Part shown: piece by piece, positions 6,089 through 45,695 of the stretch | Layout of the letters: each line of letters opens with the position of its first letter | Numbering within the stretch: the stretch's first letter is position 1 | Assembly: GCF_963921235.1 (NCBI RefSeq) | Contig: NC_086107.1 | Location: forward strand, 111,168,001 to 111,232,000 | Length of the DNA stretch: 64,000 bases | Direction: 5' to 3' | Source of the DNA: Mobula hypostoma | Taxonomy: Eukaryota | Translations under genes and position numbers: made by a program | The notes under the pieces: generated by a model | The model's database searches: none | The model's input: the letters and a program-made list of their open reading frames with translations, nothing else | Told to the model about the DNA's origin: nothing

Positions 6089-6777
6089 AGGTGACCCCTG
6101 TTTCCATCCAGGGGGTCAGTGTGGACATGGTGGAGGATTACAAATACCTGCGGATACGAATTGACAATAAACTGGACTGATCAAAGAACACTGAGACTGT
6201 CTACAAGAAGGGTCAGAGCCGTCTCTATTTCCTGAGGAGACTGAGGTCCTTTAACATCTGCTGGACGATGCTGAGGATGTTCTACGAGTCTGTGGTGGCC
6301 AGTGCTATCATGTTTGCTGTTGTGTGCTGGGGCAGCAGGCTGAGGGTGGCAGACACCAACAGAATCAACAAACTCATTCGTAAGGCCAGTGATGTTGTGG
6401 GGATGGAACTGGACTCTCTCACGGTGGTGTCTGAAAAGAGGATGCTGTCCAAGTTGCATGCCATCTTGGACAATGTCTCCCATCCACTATATAATGTACT
6501 GGGTGGGCACAGGGGTACATTCAGCCAGAGACTCATTCCACCGAGATGCAACACAGAGCGTCATAGGAAGTCATTCCTGCCTGTGGCCATCAAACTTTAC
6601 AACTCCTCCCTTGGAGGGTCAGACACCCTGAGCCAATAGGCTGGTCCTGGACTTATTTCATAATTTACTGGCATAATTTACATATTACTATTTAACTATT
6701 TATGGTTTTATTACTATTTATTATTTATGGTGCAACTGTAATGAAAACCAATTTCCCCCAGGATCAATAAAGTATGA
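6089..6777 (+). mobile_element. Rex1/Babar-type LINE 3' fragment, copy A (tail split by the CR1; remainder at 11138-11157)
   Basis: YKYL...KKGQSRLYFLRRLRSF...SFLPVAIKLYN, then AATAAA and an (ATGACT)n tail. Nearly identical to 25160-25856. Confidence 0.88.
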
Positions 6778-6870
6778 AACATAGAAACATAGAAAATAGG
6801 TGCAGGAGTAGGCCATTCGACCCTTCGAGCCTGCACCGCCATTTATTATGATCATGGCTGATCATCCAAC

Positions 6871-9800
6871 TCAGAACCCCACACCAGCCTTCCCTCCATA
6901 CCCTCTGATCCCCCTAGCCACAAGGGCCATATCTAACTCTCTCTTAAATATAGCCAATGAACTGGCCTCAACTGTTTCCTGTGGCAGAGAATTCCACAGA
7001 TTCACCACTCTCTGTGTGAAGAAGTTTTTCCTAATCTCAGGCCTAAAAGGCTTCGCCTTTATCCTCAAACTGTGACCCCTTGTTCTGGACTTCCCCAACA
7101 TTGGGAACAATCTTCCTGCATCTAGCCTGTCCAATCCCTTTAGGATTTTATATGTTTCAATCAGATCCCCCCTCAATCTTCTAAATTCCAACGAGTACAA
7201 GCCTAGTTCATCCAGTCTTTCTTCATATGAAAGTCCTGCCATCCCAGGAATCAATCTGGTGAACCTTCTTTGTACTCCCTCTATAGCAAGGATGTCTTTC
7301 CTCAGATTAGGGGACCAAAACTGCACACAATACTCCAGGTGTGGTCTCACCAAGGCCTTGTACAACTGCAGTAGTACCTTCCTGCTCCTGTACTTGAATC
7401 CTCTCGCTATAAATGCCAGCATACCATTCGCCTTTTTCACCGCCTGTTGTACCTGCATGCCCACTTTCAATGACTGGTGTATAATGACACCCAGGTCTCG
7501 TTGCACCTCCCCTTTTCCTAATCGGTCACCATTCAGATAATAATCTGTTTTCCTATTTTTGCCACCAAAGTGGATAACTTCACATTTATCCACATTAAAT
7601 TGCATCTGCCATGAGTTTGCCCACTCACCCAACCTATCCAAGTCACCCTGCATCCTCTTAGCATCCTCCTCACAACTAACACTGCCGCCCAGCTTCGTGT
7701 CATCCGCAAACTTGGAGATGCTGCATTTAATTCCCTCATCCAAGTCATTAATATATATTGTAAACAACTGGGGTCCCAGCACTGAGCCTTGCGGTACCCC
7801 ACTAGTCACTGCCTGCCATTCTGAAAAGGTCCCGTTTATTCCCACTCTTTGCTTCCTGTCTGCTAACCAATTCTCTATCCACATCAATACCTTACCCCCA
7901 ATACCGTGTGCTTTAAGTTTGCACACTAATCTCCTGTGTGGGACCTTGTCAAAAGCCTTTTGAAAATCCAAATATACCACATCCACTGGTTCTCCCCTAT
8001 CCACTCTACTAGTTACAGCCTCAAAAAATTCTATCAGATTCGTCAGACATGATTTTCCTTTCACAAATCCATGCTGACTTTGTCCAATGATTTCACCACT
8101 TTCCAAATGTGCTGTTATCACATCTTTGATAACTGACTCCAGCAGTTTCCCCACCACCGATGTTAGGCTAACAGGTCTATAATTCCCCGGTTTCTCTCTC
8201 CCTCCTTTTTTAAAAAGTGGGGTTACATCAGCCATCCTCCAATCCTCAGGAACTAGTCCAGAATCTAACGAGTTTTGAAAAATTATCACTAATGCATCCA
8301 CTATTTCTTGGGCTACTTCCTTAAGCACTCTGGGATGCAGACCATCTGGCCCTGGGGATTTATCTGCCTTTAATCCCTTCAATTTACCTAACACCACTTC
8401 CCTACTAACATGTATTTCACTCAGTTCCTCCATCTCACTGGACCCTCTGTCCCCTACTATTTCTGGAAGATTATTTATGTCCTCCTTAGTGAAGACAGAA
8501 CCAAAGTAATTATTCAATTGGTCTGTCATGTCCTTGCTCCCCATAATCAATTCACCTGTTTCTGTCTGCAGGGGACCTACATTTGTCTTTACCAGTCTTT
8601 TCCTTTTTACATATCTATAAAAGCTTTTACAGTCAGTTTTTATGTTCCCTGCCAGTTTTCTCTCATAATCTTTTTTCCCCTTCCTAATTAAGCCCTTTGT
8701 CCTCCTCTGCTGAACTCTGAATATCTCCCAGTCCTCAGGTGAGCCACTTTTTCTAGCTAATTTGTATGCTTCTTCTTTGGAATTGATACTATCCCTAATT
8801 TCTCTTGGTAGCCACGGGTGCACTACCTTCCTTGATTTATTCTTTTGCCAAACTGGGATGAACAATTGTTGTAGTTCATCCATGCAATCCTTAAATGCTT
8901 GCCATTGCATATCCACCGTCAACCCTTTAAGTGTCATTTGCCAGTCTATCTTAGCTAATTCCCCTCTCATACCTTCAAAGTTACCCCCCTTTAAGTTCAG
9001 AACCTTTGTTTCTGAATTAGCTATGTCACTCTCCATCTTAATGAAGAATTCCACCATATTATGGTCACTCTTACCCAAGGGGCCTCTCACGACAAGATTG
9101 CTAATTAACCCTTCCTCATTGCTCAAAACCCAGTCCAGAATAGCCTGCTCTCTAGTTGGTTCCTCGACATGTTGGTTCGAAAAACCATCCCGCATACATT
9201 CCAAGAAATCCTCTTCCTCAGCACCTTTACCAATTTGGTTCACCCAATCTACATGTAGATTGAAGTCACCCATTATAACCGCTGTTTCTTTATTGCACAC
9301 ATTTCTAATTTCCTGTTTAATACCATCCCCAACCTCACTACTACTGTTAGGTGGCCTGTACACAACTCCCACCAGCGTCTTCTGCCCCTTAGTGTTACGC
9401 AGCTCTACCCATATCGATTCCACATCTTCCCGGCTTATGTCCTTCCTTTCTATTGCGTTAATCTCTTTTTTAACCAGCAACGCCACCCCACCTCCCCTTC
9501 CTTCATGTCTATCCCTCCTGAATATTGAATATCCCTGAATGTTGAGCTCCCATCCTTGGTCACCCTGGAGCCATGTCTCTGTGATCCCAACTATATCATA
9601 ATCATTAATAACAATCTGCACTTTTAATTCATCCACCTTGTTACGAATGCTCCTTGCATTGACACACAAAGCCTTCAGGCGCTCTTTTACAACTCTCTTA
9701 GCCCTTATACAATTATGTTGAAAAGTGGCCCTTTTTGATGCTTGCCCTGGATTTGTCGGCCTGCCACTTTTACTTTTCTCCTTACTACTTTTTGCTTCTA

Positions 9801-9912
9801 CCCTCACTTTACACCCCTCTGTCTCTCTGCACTGGTTCCCATCCCCCTGTTGTGAACTAACCTCCTCACGCCTAGCCTCTTTAATTTGATTCCCACCCCC
9901 CAACCATTCTAG
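6871..9912 (-). CDS. CR1 ORF2: AP endonuclease + reverse transcriptase, uninterrupted, no AUG at the start
   Basis: APE motifs NARS, ITETW, GGGVAL, YRPP, GDFN, SDH. RT motifs PGPDG, YRPVSL, DFQKAFD, GVPQGS, FADD. More than 1000 codons without a stop. Confidence 0.95.
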   Translation of the reverse strand, partial: LEWLGGGNQIKEARREEVSSQQGDGNQCRETEGCKVRVEAKSSKEKSKSGRPTNPGQASKRATFQHNCIRAKRVVKERLKALCVNARSIRNKVDELKVQIVINDYDIVGITETWLQGDQGWELNIQGYSIFRRDRHEGRGGGVALLVKKEINAIERKDISREDVESIWVELRNTKGQKTLVGVVYRPPNSSSEVGDGIKQEIRNVCNKETAVIMGDFNLHVDWVNQIGKGAEEEDFLECMRDGFSNQHVEEPTREQAILDWVLSNEEGLISNLVVRGPLGKSDHNMVEFFIKMESDIANSETKVLNLKGGNFEGMRGELAKIDWQMTLKGLTVDMQWQAFKDCMDELQQLFIPVWQKNKSRKVVHPWLPREIRDSINSKEEAYKLARKSGSPEDWEIFRVQQRRTKGLIRKGKKDYERKLAGNIKTDCKSFYRYVKRKRLVKTNVGPLQTETGELIMGSKDMTDQLNNYFGSVFTKEDINNLPEIVGDRGSSEMEELSEIHVSREVVLGKLKGLKADKSPGPDGLHPRVLKEVAQEIVDALVIIFQNSLDSGLVPEDWRMADVTPLFKKGGREKPGNYRPVSLTSVVGKLLESVIKDVITAHLESGEIIGQSQHGFVKGKSCLTNLIEFFEAVTSRVDRGEPVDVVYLDFQKAFDKVPHRRLVCKLKAHGIGGKVLMWIENWLADRKQRVGINGTFSEWQAVTSGVPQGSVLGPQLFTIYINDLDEGIKCSISKFADDTKLGGSVSCEEDAKRMQGDLDRLGEWANSWQMQFNVDKCEVIHFGGKNRKTDYYLNGDRLGKGEVQRDLGVIIHQSLKVGMQVQQAVKKANGMLAFIARGFKYRSRKVLLQLYKALVRPHLEYCVQFWSPNLRKDILAIEGVQRRFTRLIPGMAGLSYEERLDELGLYSLEFRRLRGDLIETYKILKGLDRLDAGRLFPMLGKSRTRGHSLRIKAKPFRPEIRKNFFTQRVVNLWNSLPQETVEASSLAIFKRELDMALVARGIRGYGGKAGVGF

Positions 9913-10845
9913 TTTAAAGTCACCTCAGTAGCCCTCGTTAATCTCCCTGCCAGGATATTGGTCCCCCTAGGATTCAAGTGTAACCCGTCCTTTTTGTACA
10001 GGTCACGCCTGCGCCAAAAGAGGTCCCAATGATTCAAAAACTTGAATCCCTGCCTCCTGCTCCAATCCCTCAGCCACGCATTTATCCTCCACCTCATCGC
10101 ATTCCTACTCTCACTGTCGCGTGGCACAGGCAGTAATCCCGAGATTACTACCTTTGCGGTCCTTTTTCTCAACTCCCTTCCTAGCTCCCTATATTCTCCT
10201 TTCAGGACCTCTTCCCTTTTCCTACCTATGTCATTGGTACCTATATGTACCACAGCCTCTGGCTCCTCACCCTCCCACTTCAGGATATCTTGGACACAAT
10301 CAGAGATATCCTGGACCCTGGCACCAGGGAGGCAAACTACCATCCGGGTCTCTGGACTATGTCCACAGAATCGCCTATCTGACCCCCTTACTATCGAGTC
10401 CCCTATCACAACTGCCCTCCTCTTCCTTGCCCTACCCTTCTGAGCTACAGGGCCAGACTCTGTGCCGGAGGCACGGCCACTGTCACTTCCCCCGGGTAAG
10501 CTGTCCCCCCCCAACAGTACTCAAACAGGAGTACCTATTGTTAAGGGGCACAGCCACCGGGGTACTCTCTATTACCTGACTCTTCCCCTTCCCCCTCCTA
10601 ACCGTGACCCACTTGTCTGCCTCCCGTGGCCCCGGCGTAACCACCTGCCTGCAACTCCTCTCTATCAACTCCTCACTCTCCCTGACCAGACGAAGGTCAT
10701 CGAGCTGCAGCTCCAGTTCCGTAATGCGGTCCCTTAGGAGCTGCATCTCGATGCACCTGGCGCAGGTATGGACGTCCGGGAGGCTTGGAGACTCCAGGGC
10801 CTCCCATATCCGACACCGAGAACAACAAATTGCCCTCAGACTCAT
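9909..10845 (-). pseudogene. CR1 ORF1 (CxxC-CxxC zinc finger, leucine zipper, SGNH esterase) with one +1 frameshift
   Basis: MSLRAICCSRC...TCARC, LLRDRITELELQLDDLRL, VIGDS, PGA, GTND, DGLHLN. The two ORF-track pieces join if the G8 run at 10505-10512 is G7, giving 311 aa. Confidence 0.9.
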
Positions 10846-11994
10846 ACTGCCTTTCTCCTCAAATAACAACAGAAAATGAACGTCAAACCTTCCTGGCCTC
10901 ACCCGTTTCCACCTAAGCCCGTTGAGCCGAAGCCCTTAAGCCTTCACTCTGCTCCCGGCTCACTCCGCTGCCCGCTGTATGAGGCTCTGTTCCTTTTAAA
11001 TCTGTCGCGCTGCACTGCCCGACGTCACACACCTGCGCAGTCCCGCCTTTCTGAACGCCAATGGAGAAAAGAAAACAAAAATTTCAAAAATGTCTTCCTC
11101 CGCACTCCCGCCCCAACTCTCAGACTTCCTTCTTCGAATGACTATGACTATGACTATAAAGGATTCCAATTGCCTATCATATGGCACATCAACTTCCCTT
11201 TTTTTGATTTGAGGTTGCTAGGTTTTACAGTGAAATGGGAGGGAGACCTGCTGTGGGCAGAACATGATTGATGGATGGTTTATGACTCAGTGCAATTTCC
11301 CTGATCTGTCAGATGACCACAGGCCCCAGTTATTTCAGATCTGCCTGGGGACGCGATGGGAATTTATCAACGTGCTCGCTGGCCAAGAGCAAGTGAGCCT
11401 GTGCAGGAGAGGTGGATCAGAGGGTCAGTACAGAATGAGCCACTTAACATCCCATTCCACGAGCCCAGAAAGGAAATTGCCTGTCGCCTCCCTCTGGTGT
11501 CCTCCTCTCTTCCCTGTCTCCCGTGGTCCACTCTCTTCTCCTGTCAGAATCCTTTATCTTCAGCCCTTTAGGTTTACCACCTAACACCTTCCAGCTTCTC
11601 GCATCATTCTGTACTCCCCCTCCCCATTTGGTCTCACTAATCACCATCTAGCTTGTATGTACTCCTTCCTCTGCTCCCCCCGCCATCTTCTTATTCTGCA
11701 ATCTACCCCCTTTCTTTCCAGTCCTGATGTAGGCTTTCAGCCAAAACATCAACTCTTAATTCTTCTCCATAGACACTGCCTGAACTGTTGAGTTCCTCCA
11801 GCATTTTGTATGTGTTGCCCCCCGAAAGAAAACCCACAGATGTTATCGGAGTCTATTCTTGTATAATTTCTTATGTGGTCCCCAAAAATCTGTCCCATAT
11901 TTTGCTCATCCTTGTTTGGAGATTGCTCAGAATATCATCAGTTTTATTCACCAGTTTTATTTTGACCTCAGGATACCACGGTCCCCATTTATCA

Positions 11995-28257: not shown

Positions 28258-29900
28258 GTTCCTTCAGGTTGTTATAGCCAGGGATGGTAATGGGGACAAG
28301 CTCCCACTACCTATTAAACGCTCCCAATGGTGTTTGCCTCCAACTGTGTCTGACAACAAGTCCAGCTCCTGGCCTTCACGTGTGGCTTAGCTACTAAGTC
28401 TGGTGGAACCCAGACATCCCACCTCTCCCGGAAATTCCGGGAGTCTCCCGCATATTAATAGTGGCTCCCTGATGCCCGCAAATTATATACAATATCACGG
28501 AAATCAATTTTTTTGAGAGCGAGCGAGAGAAAAGCAAGAGAGAGAGAGCGAGAGCGACCACGAGAGAGAGCGTGCAAGCGAAAGAGCGAGAAAGCAAAAG
28601 AGATAGCGCAAGAGCGACCATGAGAGCGAGAGCAAGCGAGAGCGACCACGAGAGAGAGAGCGCGCGAGAGCGCGCCATGGCAGAGTGTTCCAAAAAAAGA
28701 AAATATAAAACGTGCGTCACCCCAGACTACACTAAAGTGTACCCCTGCCTAATAGGGGTCAAAATAATGACAGTGTTGCTCGCTGCACTGTTTGCAACAG
28801 TGACTTTTCTATTGCCCATGGTGGGTTAAGACTGTAAAAGACATGTTGAGGTGAGTTTAACAGGTGTCATTCATTCATTAGCATAGCTAACGTTATTTAA
28901 ACTAGCTGGTCAGGAACTACTCTATTGCAGACATCCCACCCCTCCCAGAAATTGATGGTGCTACCTCCCTGAAATGAATTTTTGCAGGGTGGGATGTCTG
29001 AGAACCATTTCTACTGACAGGAGTAGGGGGAAAAGGCGGGTTACTCGTGCCTTGAAACTAGTCGCTTCAGGCAGATGGGGCTTGTCTGCTGTGGCTGGCA
29101 GCTCATCTAGGAGAAGAAAAACTCTTATCTCAAACTTCTGCTGCCTTGTCACTTTTTATTGTCATTTCAACCATTACTGCTGGTACAGAAAATGAGACAA
29201 CATTTTCCAGGACCATGGTGATACATGAAACAATACAAAAACTACACTGAACTACGTAAGAAAAAAAAACACAAAAACTACACTGGACTACAGACCTACC
29301 CAGGACTGCATAAAGTGCACAAAACAGTGCAGGCATTACAATAAATAATAAACAAGACAATAGGCACAGTAGAGGGCAGTAGGTTGGTGTCAAGCCAGGC
29401 TCTGGGTATTGAGGAGTCTGATGGCTTGGGGGAAGAAACTGTTACATAGTCTGGTCGTGAGAGCCCGAATGCTTCGGTGCCTTTTGCCAGATGGCAGGAG
29501 GATGGAGAGTTTATAGGAGGGGTGCGTGGGGTCCTTCATAATGCTGTTTGCTTTACGGATGCAGCGTGTGGTGTAGGTGTCTGTGATGGCGGGAAGAGGG
29601 CCCCGATGATCTTCTCAGCTGACCTCACTATCCGCTGCTATGCCTGCTCACAGGGAGTAAACTCTGAGGGGAAATTCCAGAGCTGGAGCCCCCAAGGCAG
29701 TCCTACATTGAGTTCAGCGCTGACTGGCAACTCCTGCAATGCTGCTGGTGGCAAATTGCATCTGCCTCTGCCCTTCCTTTGGGTTTATCAGCTGCGTGGA
29801 GAGGGGGAGCCTGCTGTATGGGCAACAGCTCACACTCCGTATCATACTGGCCTGGCTTGTGAATCATGTGGACAGCTAAGACGCAGCATCCATGGTCAAC
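28258..29900 (+). mobile_element. Non-coding interspersed repeat (RTE-5'UTR-like), carrying nested insertions
   Basis: Homologous to 54456-55510 (+) and 44985-46378 (-). The ctaggagaag.aaaactct.atctcaaac motif resembles RTE 5' ends; the family assignment is from memory. Confidence 0.55.
28411..29000. mobile_element. Non-autonomous DNA transposon (hAT-like), copy 1
   Basis: TIR CAGACATCCCACC / GGTGGGATGTCTG, flanks GGAACC / AGAACC, internal GA-rich minisatellite. Confidence 0.85.
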
Positions 29901-45055: not shown

Positions 45056-45695
45056 CAGACATCCCACCTCTCCCGGAAGTTCCGGGAGTCTCCCGCATAT
45101 GAATAGTGGCTCCCTGATGCCCGCAAATTATATGCAGTATCACGGAAATCAATTTTTTTGAGAGCCCGCGAGAGAAAGCAAGAGAGTGCGTGAGAGCGAC
45201 GAGAGAGAGAGAGCGAGAGCAAGCAAACGAGAGAGCGAGCAAGAAAGCAAGCAAGAGCACGTGAGTGAGAGAGAGCACGAGCGAGAGCGCAAGAGAGCAA
45301 GCGAGAGAGCGTGTAAGTGACCATGAGAGAGAGAGACAGCGTGAGCGAGAGCGCGCCATGGCAGAGTGTTCCAAAAAAAAATAAAATGTACGTCACCCCA
45401 GACTACACTAAAATGTACCCCTGCCTAATAGGGGTCAAAATAATGACAGTGTTGCTCGCTGCACTGTTTGCAACAGTGACTTTTCTATTGCCCATGGTGG
45501 GTTAAGACTGTAAAAGACATGTTGAGGTGAGTTTAACAGGTGTCATTCGTTCATTAGCAGAGCTAATGTTATTTAAACTAGCTGGCTAGCTGCTCAGGAG
45601 CTACTCGATTGCAGACATCCCACCTCTCCCAGAAGTCTCCCGCCAATTGATGGTTCTACCTCCCTGAAATGAGTTTTTGCAGGGTGGGATGTCTG
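45056..45695. mobile_element. Non-autonomous DNA transposon (hAT-like), copy 2
   Basis: Same TIRs and body as 28411-29000; flanks CCTTCC / GCTTCC. Confidence 0.85.

Follow-up and report, generated by a model that had tools for sequence, protein, structure and literature searches.

Conservation of a slippery heptamer at the ORF1/ORF2 junction of CR1 retrotransposons suggests a retrovirus-like frameshift in the synthesis of their copying enzyme

INTRODUCTION

How the second open reading frame (ORF) of a long interspersed nuclear element (LINE) is translated is a long-standing question to which, to our knowledge, L1 and SART1 alone have given partial answers. In many vertebrates, the dominant retrotransposons are CR1 elements. 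Here, we analyzed a CR1-type LINE copy on the minus strand of a 64,000-nucleotide (nt) stretch of the Mobula hypostoma genome (NCBI RefSeq assembly GCF_963921235.1, contig NC_086107.1, positions 111,168,001 to 111,232,000), referred to below as the window, with coordinates counted from its first letter. The junction between ORF1 and ORF2 of this element carries the heptamer TTTAAAC directly before the ORF1 stop codon. Comparison of related elements indicates that this junction is very probably a conserved programmed -1 ribosomal frameshift site giving an ORF1-ORF2 fusion.

Several routes to the second product of a LINE have been described. Termination-reinitiation at UAAUG was shown for SART1, and reinitiation or AUG-independent initiation was proposed for human L1, with a separate ORF2 protein (ORF2p) as the product. 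CR1 resembles SART1 and L1 in having a bicistronic RNA from which small amounts of ORF2 product are needed, but its junction lacks a stop-start overlap, and its conserved letters are those of a slip site. The Dictyostelium elements TRE5-A and TRE3-A require a -1 frameshift (2018 review); they belong to another clade and another host, and no mention of a conserved canonical heptamer or of cross-family conservation was found for them in that source. A Paramecium study suggests +1 shifting or reinitiation.

In the available portion of the Atkins 2016 recoding review, pol lies in the -1 frame in 28 of 51 animal long terminal repeat (LTR) elements, and many of these carry classical heptamers. The CR1 junction is like retroviral and LTR gag-pol junctions in that a structural or accessory ORF lies upstream, the reverse transcriptase (RT) ORF is in the -1 frame, the overlap is short, the heptamer allows tandem slippage, and the fusion would, as proposed here, be made at a low rate. 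It is unlike them in that CR1 is a non-LTR element whose upstream protein is a zinc-finger esterase and not Gag, has no protease to split a fusion, and has no predicted stem-loop or pseudoknot. The heptamer U UUA AAC is identical to that of the coronavirus and arterivirus ORF1a/1b junctions; those viruses use a pseudoknot a few bases downstream, whereas CR1 has an immediate 0-frame stop and only a conserved G-rich tract.

The only non-LTR elements named in the part of the Atkins 2016 review at hand are HeT-A, TART, and L1. A full-text literature search found no link of CR1 to frameshifting or to TTTAAAC; early CR1 papers, possibly describing the overlap, lay outside that search. A search for the word "frameshift" gave no match in a 2013 review of LINE protein biogenesis, a 2014 paper on ORF1 modularity, a 2013 paper on the esterase structure, or the 2026 CR1-group survey. 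What is new here is the proposed frameshift site in CR1, and what is known is the gag-pol mechanism of retroviruses and LTR elements and the coronavirus heptamer.

RESULTS

Anatomy of the ORF1/ORF2 junction in the window

The minus strand at the junction reads ...GAG GTG ACT TTA AAC TAG AAT GGT TGG GGG GTG GGA ATC in the ORF1 frame. The heptamer T TTA AAC (9912..9918, minus) is in the X XXY YYZ phase of ORF1 (ACT TTA AAC at 9920-9912) and adjoins the ORF1 stop TAG (9909..9911, minus), so the letters at 9918-9909 bear out what a preliminary description of the window had read there. Upstream, a TGA (9925..9927, minus) closes the -1 frame, which limits the possible shift window to 16 nt. Past this codon, the -1 frame reads TGA (9927-9925) GGT GAC TTT AAA CTA GAA TGG TTG (9903) GGG GGT GGG and runs on into ORF2, in full agreement with the 16-nt overlap described earlier.

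The listed start of ORF2 is the UUG at 9903, and the first ATG-coded Met is residue 211 (9273-9271), behind the NARS (residue 82), ETW (109), and YRPP (182) motifs, also as first described. The junction has no adjacent or overlapping stop and AUG in the ORF2 frame, the feature that marks termination-reinitiation of the SART1 or calicivirus type. A nearby ATG (9905..9907, minus) is in the third frame, that of neither ORF1 nor ORF2, and opens an 8-codon ORF; it is not conserved. A fusion of ~1324 amino acids (aa) had been predicted across this junction. That size applies to intact family members; it is a property of the family and not of the window copy, because the ORF1 of the latter is broken (see below).

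The sequence TTTAAACTAG occurs three times in the window, compared with 0.19 expected. Chance is judged to be no explanation for the junction motif, and that argument comes from conservation, not from this count. The other two occurrences (28896-28905 and 45572-45581, plus strand) were considered as CR1 junctions and rejected, as they lie in two copies of an unrelated repeat. This repeat has ~60 nt of near-identical flank around sites 28896 and 45572 and no open frames.

The heptamer is invariant in nine CR1 families of the same genome

Queries with the esterase profile and with ORF1 proteins from other species revealed eight further families in the genome, and their junction stretches were fetched, for a set comprising families 1 (that of the window), 2, A, B, C, D, E, E2, and F. 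Identity of ORF1 to that of the window ranges from ~81% of amino acids down to roughly half, the value for the most distant families being an indirect estimate. The last ORF1 codons are ACT TTA AAC TAG in family 1, AGT TTA AAC TAG in family 2, GCT TTA AAC TAA in family A, GGT TTA AAC TAA in families B, E, and E2, GGT TTA AAC TAG in family C, TGT TTA AAC TAA in family D, and GCT TTA AAC TAG in family F. All nine thus read NNT TTA AAC TAR, with NNT encoding T, S, A, G, or C. Four families have TAG as the stop, five have TAA, and none has TGA.

The last 25 ORF1 codons of the nine families were aligned for a comparison of codon use. In 9/9 families, TTA encodes the final Leu, AAC encodes the final Asn, and the codon before these two ends in T. 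Three other invariant Leu columns of this alignment each use three codons (TTA/TTG/CTC, TTG/CTG/CTT, and CTG/CTA/CTT), both AAT and AAC occur in conserved Asn columns, and GGG, GGT, GGA, and GGC all occur in Gly columns. Since TTA, AAC, and the preceding T are fixed while other synonymous sites vary, the pattern argues for a slip site rather than a peptide motif. The heptamer is conserved beyond the needs of the encoded protein, as seen both in this codon table and in the residue-class pattern described below, and the earlier expectation that it would be intolerant of synonymous change holds between families.

The frame relation is conserved as well, as had been anticipated: each of the nine families has its APE domain in the -1 frame. 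This frame opens 3-51 nt (1-17 codons) before the TTT of the heptamer, and at most five codons before it in eight of the nine. Families 1, 2, C, and F lack an ATG in the interval from the junction to the APE domain. The ATG found at 9907 in the window is absent from the other eight families, which have ATT, ATA, GTA, or TTT at that position.

Eight of 22 family 2 copies (among L061-L080) have a TGA ten codons into the -1 frame, in the column after GGGAAC, which closes the ORF2 frame in those copies; because the majority of copies have CGA there, the TGA reflects CpG decay after insertion. Family 2 and the window share 81% aa identity in ORF1 and 31% in ORF2 (loci L052, L055, and L061-L080), and their nucleotide similarity stops ~65 nt past the junction, near 9850. 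It looks as if, in the window's family, an ORF1 module that brought its own slip site had been attached to a different ORF2 module. The G-rich motif of the junction had been described as duplicated, and indeed, GGGGGGTGGGAATC at 9901-9888 is followed by a second copy, CAGGGGGATGGGAACCA (9827..9843, minus), which encodes the peptide QGDGNQ and matches the junction-proximal motif of families E and F. This second copy may be a relic of the ORF1-module swap, kept from the ORF2 donor. A module swap fits the reticulate evolution of ORF1 described in the accessible part of the study by Metcalfe and Casane.

ORF1 and ORF2 relatives in other vertebrates

Three protein searches were pooled into 289 distinct ORF1 relatives. 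In a word-indexed search with the esterase ORF, 77 of the 120 listed relatives end in -LN. A second search, seeded with a turtle protein, found ...(K/R)RALN in most sea, pond, and land turtles, Anolis, Podarcis, and a dendrobatid frog. A profile search of 1.84 billion cluster representatives returned 17,944 relatives at E <= 0.001. The relatives come from rays, sharks, coelacanth, frogs, turtles, and squamates, with sources that include Leucoraja, Hypanus, Pristis, Stegostoma, Latimeria, Xenopus, Hyla, and Zootoca, the turtles Lepidochelys, Chrysemys, and Gopherus, and the squamates Anolis and Podarcis.

The final Asn is the terminal residue of 174 of the 289 relatives, which include 144 ending in LN, 13 in GN, and 4 in KN. 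LN, GN, and KN are the 0-frame products of U UUA AAC, G GGA AAC, and A AAA AAC, respectively, all three of which are well-known slip sites. The residue before LN is compatible with an NNU codon in 141 of 144 cases, including 32 in which it is Y, C, H, D, F, or N, which have NNU or NNC codons only. Before GN, the residue is Q in nine of 13 and is NNG-compatible in 13/13 and NNU-compatible in 4/13. Q precedes LN in 0/144 versus GN in 9/13 (Fisher p = 6e-12, a value that is too small since the sequences are related). The GN termini would thus fit G GGA AAC, and the KN termini would fit A AAA AAC.

These non-LN termini are -QGN, -AGN, -SGN, or -PGN (13) and -SKN or -AKN (4). Inspection by eye of 119 of 150 representative rows revealed further termini in which K-N is followed by 8-17 residues or in which the end is F-F-R/H/G; examples from the various non-LN classes are P0112, P0114, P0294, P0306, P0320, and P0325. 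They hint at A AAA AAC slightly upstream of the stop and at U UUU UUY, a lead rather than a finding. Searches of the M. hypostoma genome found no KN-class family with P0320 at E <= 1e-30 and, with the GN-class query P0112, LN families only (36-47% identity).

The position of the ORF1 end is also regular. Among 87 homologues bearing the motif DGLHL, 79 end 15-26 residues past it, 74 of those 79 in LN; the remaining DGLHL homologues are fragments, gene-model fusions, or single mutated copies. The end lies exactly 21 residues past DGLHL in 65 homologues. In the ORF1 alignment, the terminal N is invariant and the L nearly so.

On the ORF2 side, eight of 120 relatives (P0124, P0146, P0147, P0156, P0174, P0201, P0214, and P0233) start a few residues before F-K-L, which corresponds to UUU AAA CUN in the -1 frame. 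P0124, a stingray gene model, and P0156 are predicted esterase-APE fusions; the two read ...GGFKL... and ...LQLFKL....

A distant LINE with an esterase ORF1, represented by metagenome contigs L099 and L100 (1900-2400) at 28% identity, has a different junction design: ORF1 does not end in LN and stops at TGA, an in-frame ATG follows two codons later, and ORF2 is in frame 0. The absence of LN from an element with a frame-0 ORF2 indicates that the heptamer goes together with the -1 arrangement. Scans for junction DNA of other species gave five loci in metagenomes with query A2, none of them a vertebrate CR1, no match in viral contigs with A3 or A2, and, in genome contigs, no match with P0114 and one 531-nt fragment without the junction with A2. 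The slip site is not confined to the window's family and appears to be ancestral to esterase-bearing vertebrate CR1 elements.

A G-rich tract follows the heptamer

At classical -1 sites, a stem-loop or pseudoknot is usually present 5-9 nt downstream. We folded the 60 and 100 nt after the heptamer in each of the nine families by RNAfold, with and without G-quadruplex energies and with mononucleotide shuffles as the baseline. No helix shared across the nine families was predicted. In family 1, the minimum free energy (MFE) of the 60-nt fold is -6.1 kcal/mol (z = +0.6), and a two-tier G-quadruplex is predicted in families 1, 2, C, and E only. A downstream structure had been suggested for this junction; the folds gave neither a stem-loop nor a consistent G-quadruplex in the nine families. 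The UGGUU/AAUCA stem named in that suggestion is present in the family 1 MFE fold, which is itself weak, and is not kept in the other families.

The nine sequences diverge too fast to be aligned beyond ~40 nt past the heptamer. Within that distance, a run of at least four G begins 8-11 nt after the heptamer in 9/9 families, as part of a conserved purine-rich stretch of five to seven G, one or two other letters, three or four G, and then A. The window's tract, GGGGGGTGGG (9892..9901, minus), begins 10 nt after the heptamer. In the ORF2 frame, the tract encodes G-x-G-(N). GGG encodes its two Gly residues in 16 of 18 cases, compared with 9 of 17 at two conserved Gly columns of ORF1, which suggests that the RNA as well as the peptide is under constraint. 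A stop-mutated turtle copy, P0251, reads ...ALN-W-KFGGDGW, and since KFGGDGW lies past the LN, a Gly-rich, hence G-rich, stretch lies beyond the turtle junction too.

The G-rich tract is thus a candidate frameshift stimulator. In arterivirus nsp2TF, a C-rich motif acts as a linear, protein-dependent 3' stimulator. The CR1 tract resembles the linear stimulators of arterivirus nsp2TF and cardiovirus 2A in being an unstructured motif ~10 nt or more after the shift site; it differs from them in that it is G-rich and its role is putative. "Linear" stimulators 12-15 nt downstream, associated with trans-acting factors, are described in the available part of the Atkins 2016 review.

Copies of the window's own family

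The window's family is young and abundant: 40 of 40 scored junction matches, among 1677 first-look candidates in the genome, show 98-100% identity. The esterase profile search gave 29,326 candidates in the genome. We fetched 73 family copies by best score, a sample that includes the window's copy and at least one copy fetched twice and that leans towards the query because its members are the best-scoring matches. TTTAAAC is intact in 70 of the 73, with L046, L049, and L084 as exceptions; L002, a locus that also holds a second element, has its junction intact. The arrangement TTTAAACTAR occurs in 124 of 141 fetched loci.

The tract at 9896-9901 has six letters in 67 of 69 parsed family copies, seven in L040, and five in L091. 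A five-G consensus had been named as the state that would bring the ATG at 9907 into the ORF2 frame and favor termination-reinitiation; with six letters in 67 of 69 copies, G5 is not the family state. Only in L091 does the ATG at 9907 fall into the ORF2 frame, as a result of the missing G. Two other loci have unusual junctions. In L092 (146-200), 10 additional nt put ORF2 in frame 0 behind the stop, and in L109, one additional G upstream of the heptamer fuses ORF1 and ORF2 into an open frame of 707 aa.

Contigs of four public runs were compared over 9650-10150; the runs were labelled RNA by guess only, and their contigs show presence, not transcription. Many variant letters occur on both sides of the junction, and no variant reaches 10% between 9847 and 9924, with no indel in the G run.

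Extent, domains, and classification of the CR1 copy

The CR1 copy spans ~4.36 kb (6776..11139, minus). Its 5' limit is the start of the alignment with the longest other copies, and its 3' limit is an 8-nt microsatellite (6776..6799, minus), identified by Tandem Repeats Finder as 3.1 copies of GAAACATA on the plus strand, or TATGTTTC on the element strand. The ORF2 frame, encoding the APE endonuclease and reverse transcriptase, is open from the TGA at 9927-9925 to the stop at 6871-6873 (6871..9924, minus); the listed ORF2 (6871..9903, minus) has 1010 codons from its TTG "start" at 9903. Pfam matches in ORF2 are RVT_1 (PF00078, 4.4e-34), Exo_endo_phos (PF03372, 1.6e-12), and PF14529.

ORF1 consists of an N-terminal part with a Cys-rich zinc finger and a coiled coil (10483..10845, minus; ATG at 10845) and an SGNH/GDSL esterase part (9909..10514, minus), which matches Lipase_GDSL_2 (PF13472, 1.1e-15) and whose nearest solved relative is PDB 4c1b, "ORF1-encoded protein" (1.9e-29). 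The two parts are in different frames in the window copy, where a G run near 10512 (~10505-10512, minus) is one G longer than in the intact copy L014, whose ORF1 has 310 aa; this extra letter is the cause of the frame difference. This extra G may be a real mutation or an assembly homopolymer error.

Three CR1 traits are present: an APE endonuclease and reverse transcriptase in ORF2, as matched by Pfam; an esterase ORF1 with an N-terminal zinc finger and coiled coil, in which PF13472 matches and the Cys-rich N terminus is visible in the sequence; and a short 3' microsatellite instead of poly(A), with three TATGTTTC units at 6776-6799. We take such an 8-nt microsatellite tail to be a CR1 hallmark. 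The element was assigned to CR1 by its domain make-up and a 2026 CR1-group survey. The label is reasonable because, in the available part of that survey, vertebrate canonical CR1s have esterase ORF1s; chondrichthyan L2s are without ORF1.

Just past the CR1 3' end, on the opposite strand, lies a 123-codon ORF (6268-6639, plus) with the sequence MLRMFYESVVASAIMFAVVCWGS.... Judged by eye, it resembles the C-terminal part of another retroelement's polymerase.

DISCUSSION

The CR1 junction has the heptamer phase, the -1 overlap, and the excess conservation of a canonical -1 signal, and it has no predicted downstream stem-loop or pseudoknot. The sequences show the heptamer in its phase, the frame relation of the two ORFs, the absence of an AUG, and conservation at synonymous sites; ribosomal shifting at the heptamer, its efficiency, the fusion protein, and a stimulatory role of the G tract are inferred from them. 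Most ribosomes on ORF1 would halt at the UAG and release the ORF1 protein (ORF1p). A minority would shift one base backwards at U UUA AAC, where tRNA-Leu would exchange UUA for UUU and tRNA-Asn would exchange AAC for AAA. These ribosomes would then read CUA GAA UGG UUG GGG and onward into ORF2. The product, ~1324 aa in intact members, would join the zinc finger, coiled coil, and esterase of ORF1 to the APE and RT of ORF2. As in the gag-pol strategy, the ratio of ORF2 to ORF1 product would be kept low by the rate of slipping, and the coiled coil common to both proteins could draw the fusion into ORF1p assemblies on the same RNA.

Several observations weigh against this model. The support for it is comparative, and the evidence from outside the M. 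hypostoma genome consists of amino-acid sequences. For none of the nine families was a fold of the 60 or 100 nt downstream predicted to be more stable than its shuffles (z-scores of -1.3 to +1.8), pseudoknots being beyond RNAfold. An in-frame ATG lies between the junction and the APE domain, at varying positions, in families B, D, and E and in some copies of A, so that independent initiation of ORF2 is possible there; the absence of an early AUG from ORF2, as originally claimed, holds for families 1, 2, C, and F and not for these. Three of the 144 LN termini have E before LN, which NNU cannot encode; such rare E-L-N termini would give G UUA AAC, which we take to be the equine arteritis virus variant. 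The G runs near the junction readily gain or lose letters (L040, L091, L092, and L109). Finally, no ORF1-ORF2 fusion is reported for any LINE in the literature searched, and L1 and SART1 use other routes.

The main rival to frameshifting, which we consider unlikely, is a separate ORF2 protein, made by termination at the UAG and reinitiation or by AUG-independent initiation a few codons downstream, with the heptamer being incidental. A stop codon right at the junction in 9/9 families, a -1 frame open from the junction to the APE domain, and the lack of a predicted stimulatory structure are all compatible with a restart. Separate initiation nevertheless leaves unexplained why no family departs from TTA, AAC, or the T that ends the codon before them while neighboring synonymous sites vary, and why the LN, GN, and KN classes have preceding residues that fit NNU, NNG, and NNA, respectively. 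The junction also offers no stop-start overlap with an AUG, as the ATG at 9907 lies out of frame with ORF2 and is missing from the other eight families. A further alternative, to which we assign a very low probability, is that the conserved letters have a role outside translation, as a C-terminal Leu-Asn motif of ORF1p, a TATA-like TTTAAA internal promoter, or an RNA binding site. The invariant terminal N, the nearly invariant L, and the fixed distance of 21 residues from DGLHL, which could be a structural need, would suit a peptide motif. Yet a peptide motif would fix neither the rare TTA codon, nor AAC, nor the third base of a variable preceding codon, and it would not tie Q to GN and Y, C, H, or D to LN. 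A TATA-like signal does not suit the GN and KN classes, and any such role leaves ORF2 without an explained route of translation.

It is hardly credible that the arrangement is an accident or artefact, that is, a chance heptamer in a repeat undergoing decay or a frame relation that arose from homopolymer errors during assembly. Individual copies do vary in their G runs (L040, +1; L091, -1; L092, +10; and L109, +1 upstream of the heptamer), and the window copy has its +1 G within ORF1. The family comparison excludes chance and assembly error, in that the same arrangement recurs in the 124 of 141 loci with TTTAAACTAR and in nine families, and the contigs of the four public runs have no variant of at least 10% between 9847 and 9924. 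Programmed -1 frameshifting is, of the explanations considered, the one that we favor.

More tentatively, and with appreciable doubt, -1 frameshifting may be general and ancestral in CR1-group LINEs with esterase ORF1s. Such elements would use U UUA AAC, G GGA AAC, A AAA AAC, and perhaps U UUU UUY interchangeably, with the G tract 8-11 nt downstream as a new linear stimulator. Its reader would be either the ribosome or a protein that binds G tracts, possibly the zinc-finger ORF1p of the element itself, in which case ORF1p abundance would feed back on ORF2 synthesis.

The conservation of the CR1 slip site across diverged lineages suggests that these elements use a retrovirus-like frameshift to make their copying enzyme. 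If so, CR1 would have adopted the gag-pol solution of retroviruses, and its junction would be a testable case of a eukaryotic -1 site without obvious RNA structure. An ORF1 that ends in -LN, -GN, or -KN followed by a stop would be a simple marker for potentially coding CR1 copies, and annotation pipelines that seek an ATG-initiated ORF2 would mis-define the protein. The active CR1 enzyme would then be an ORF1-ORF2 fusion, which would bear on the cis-preference and particle assembly of CR1 elements.

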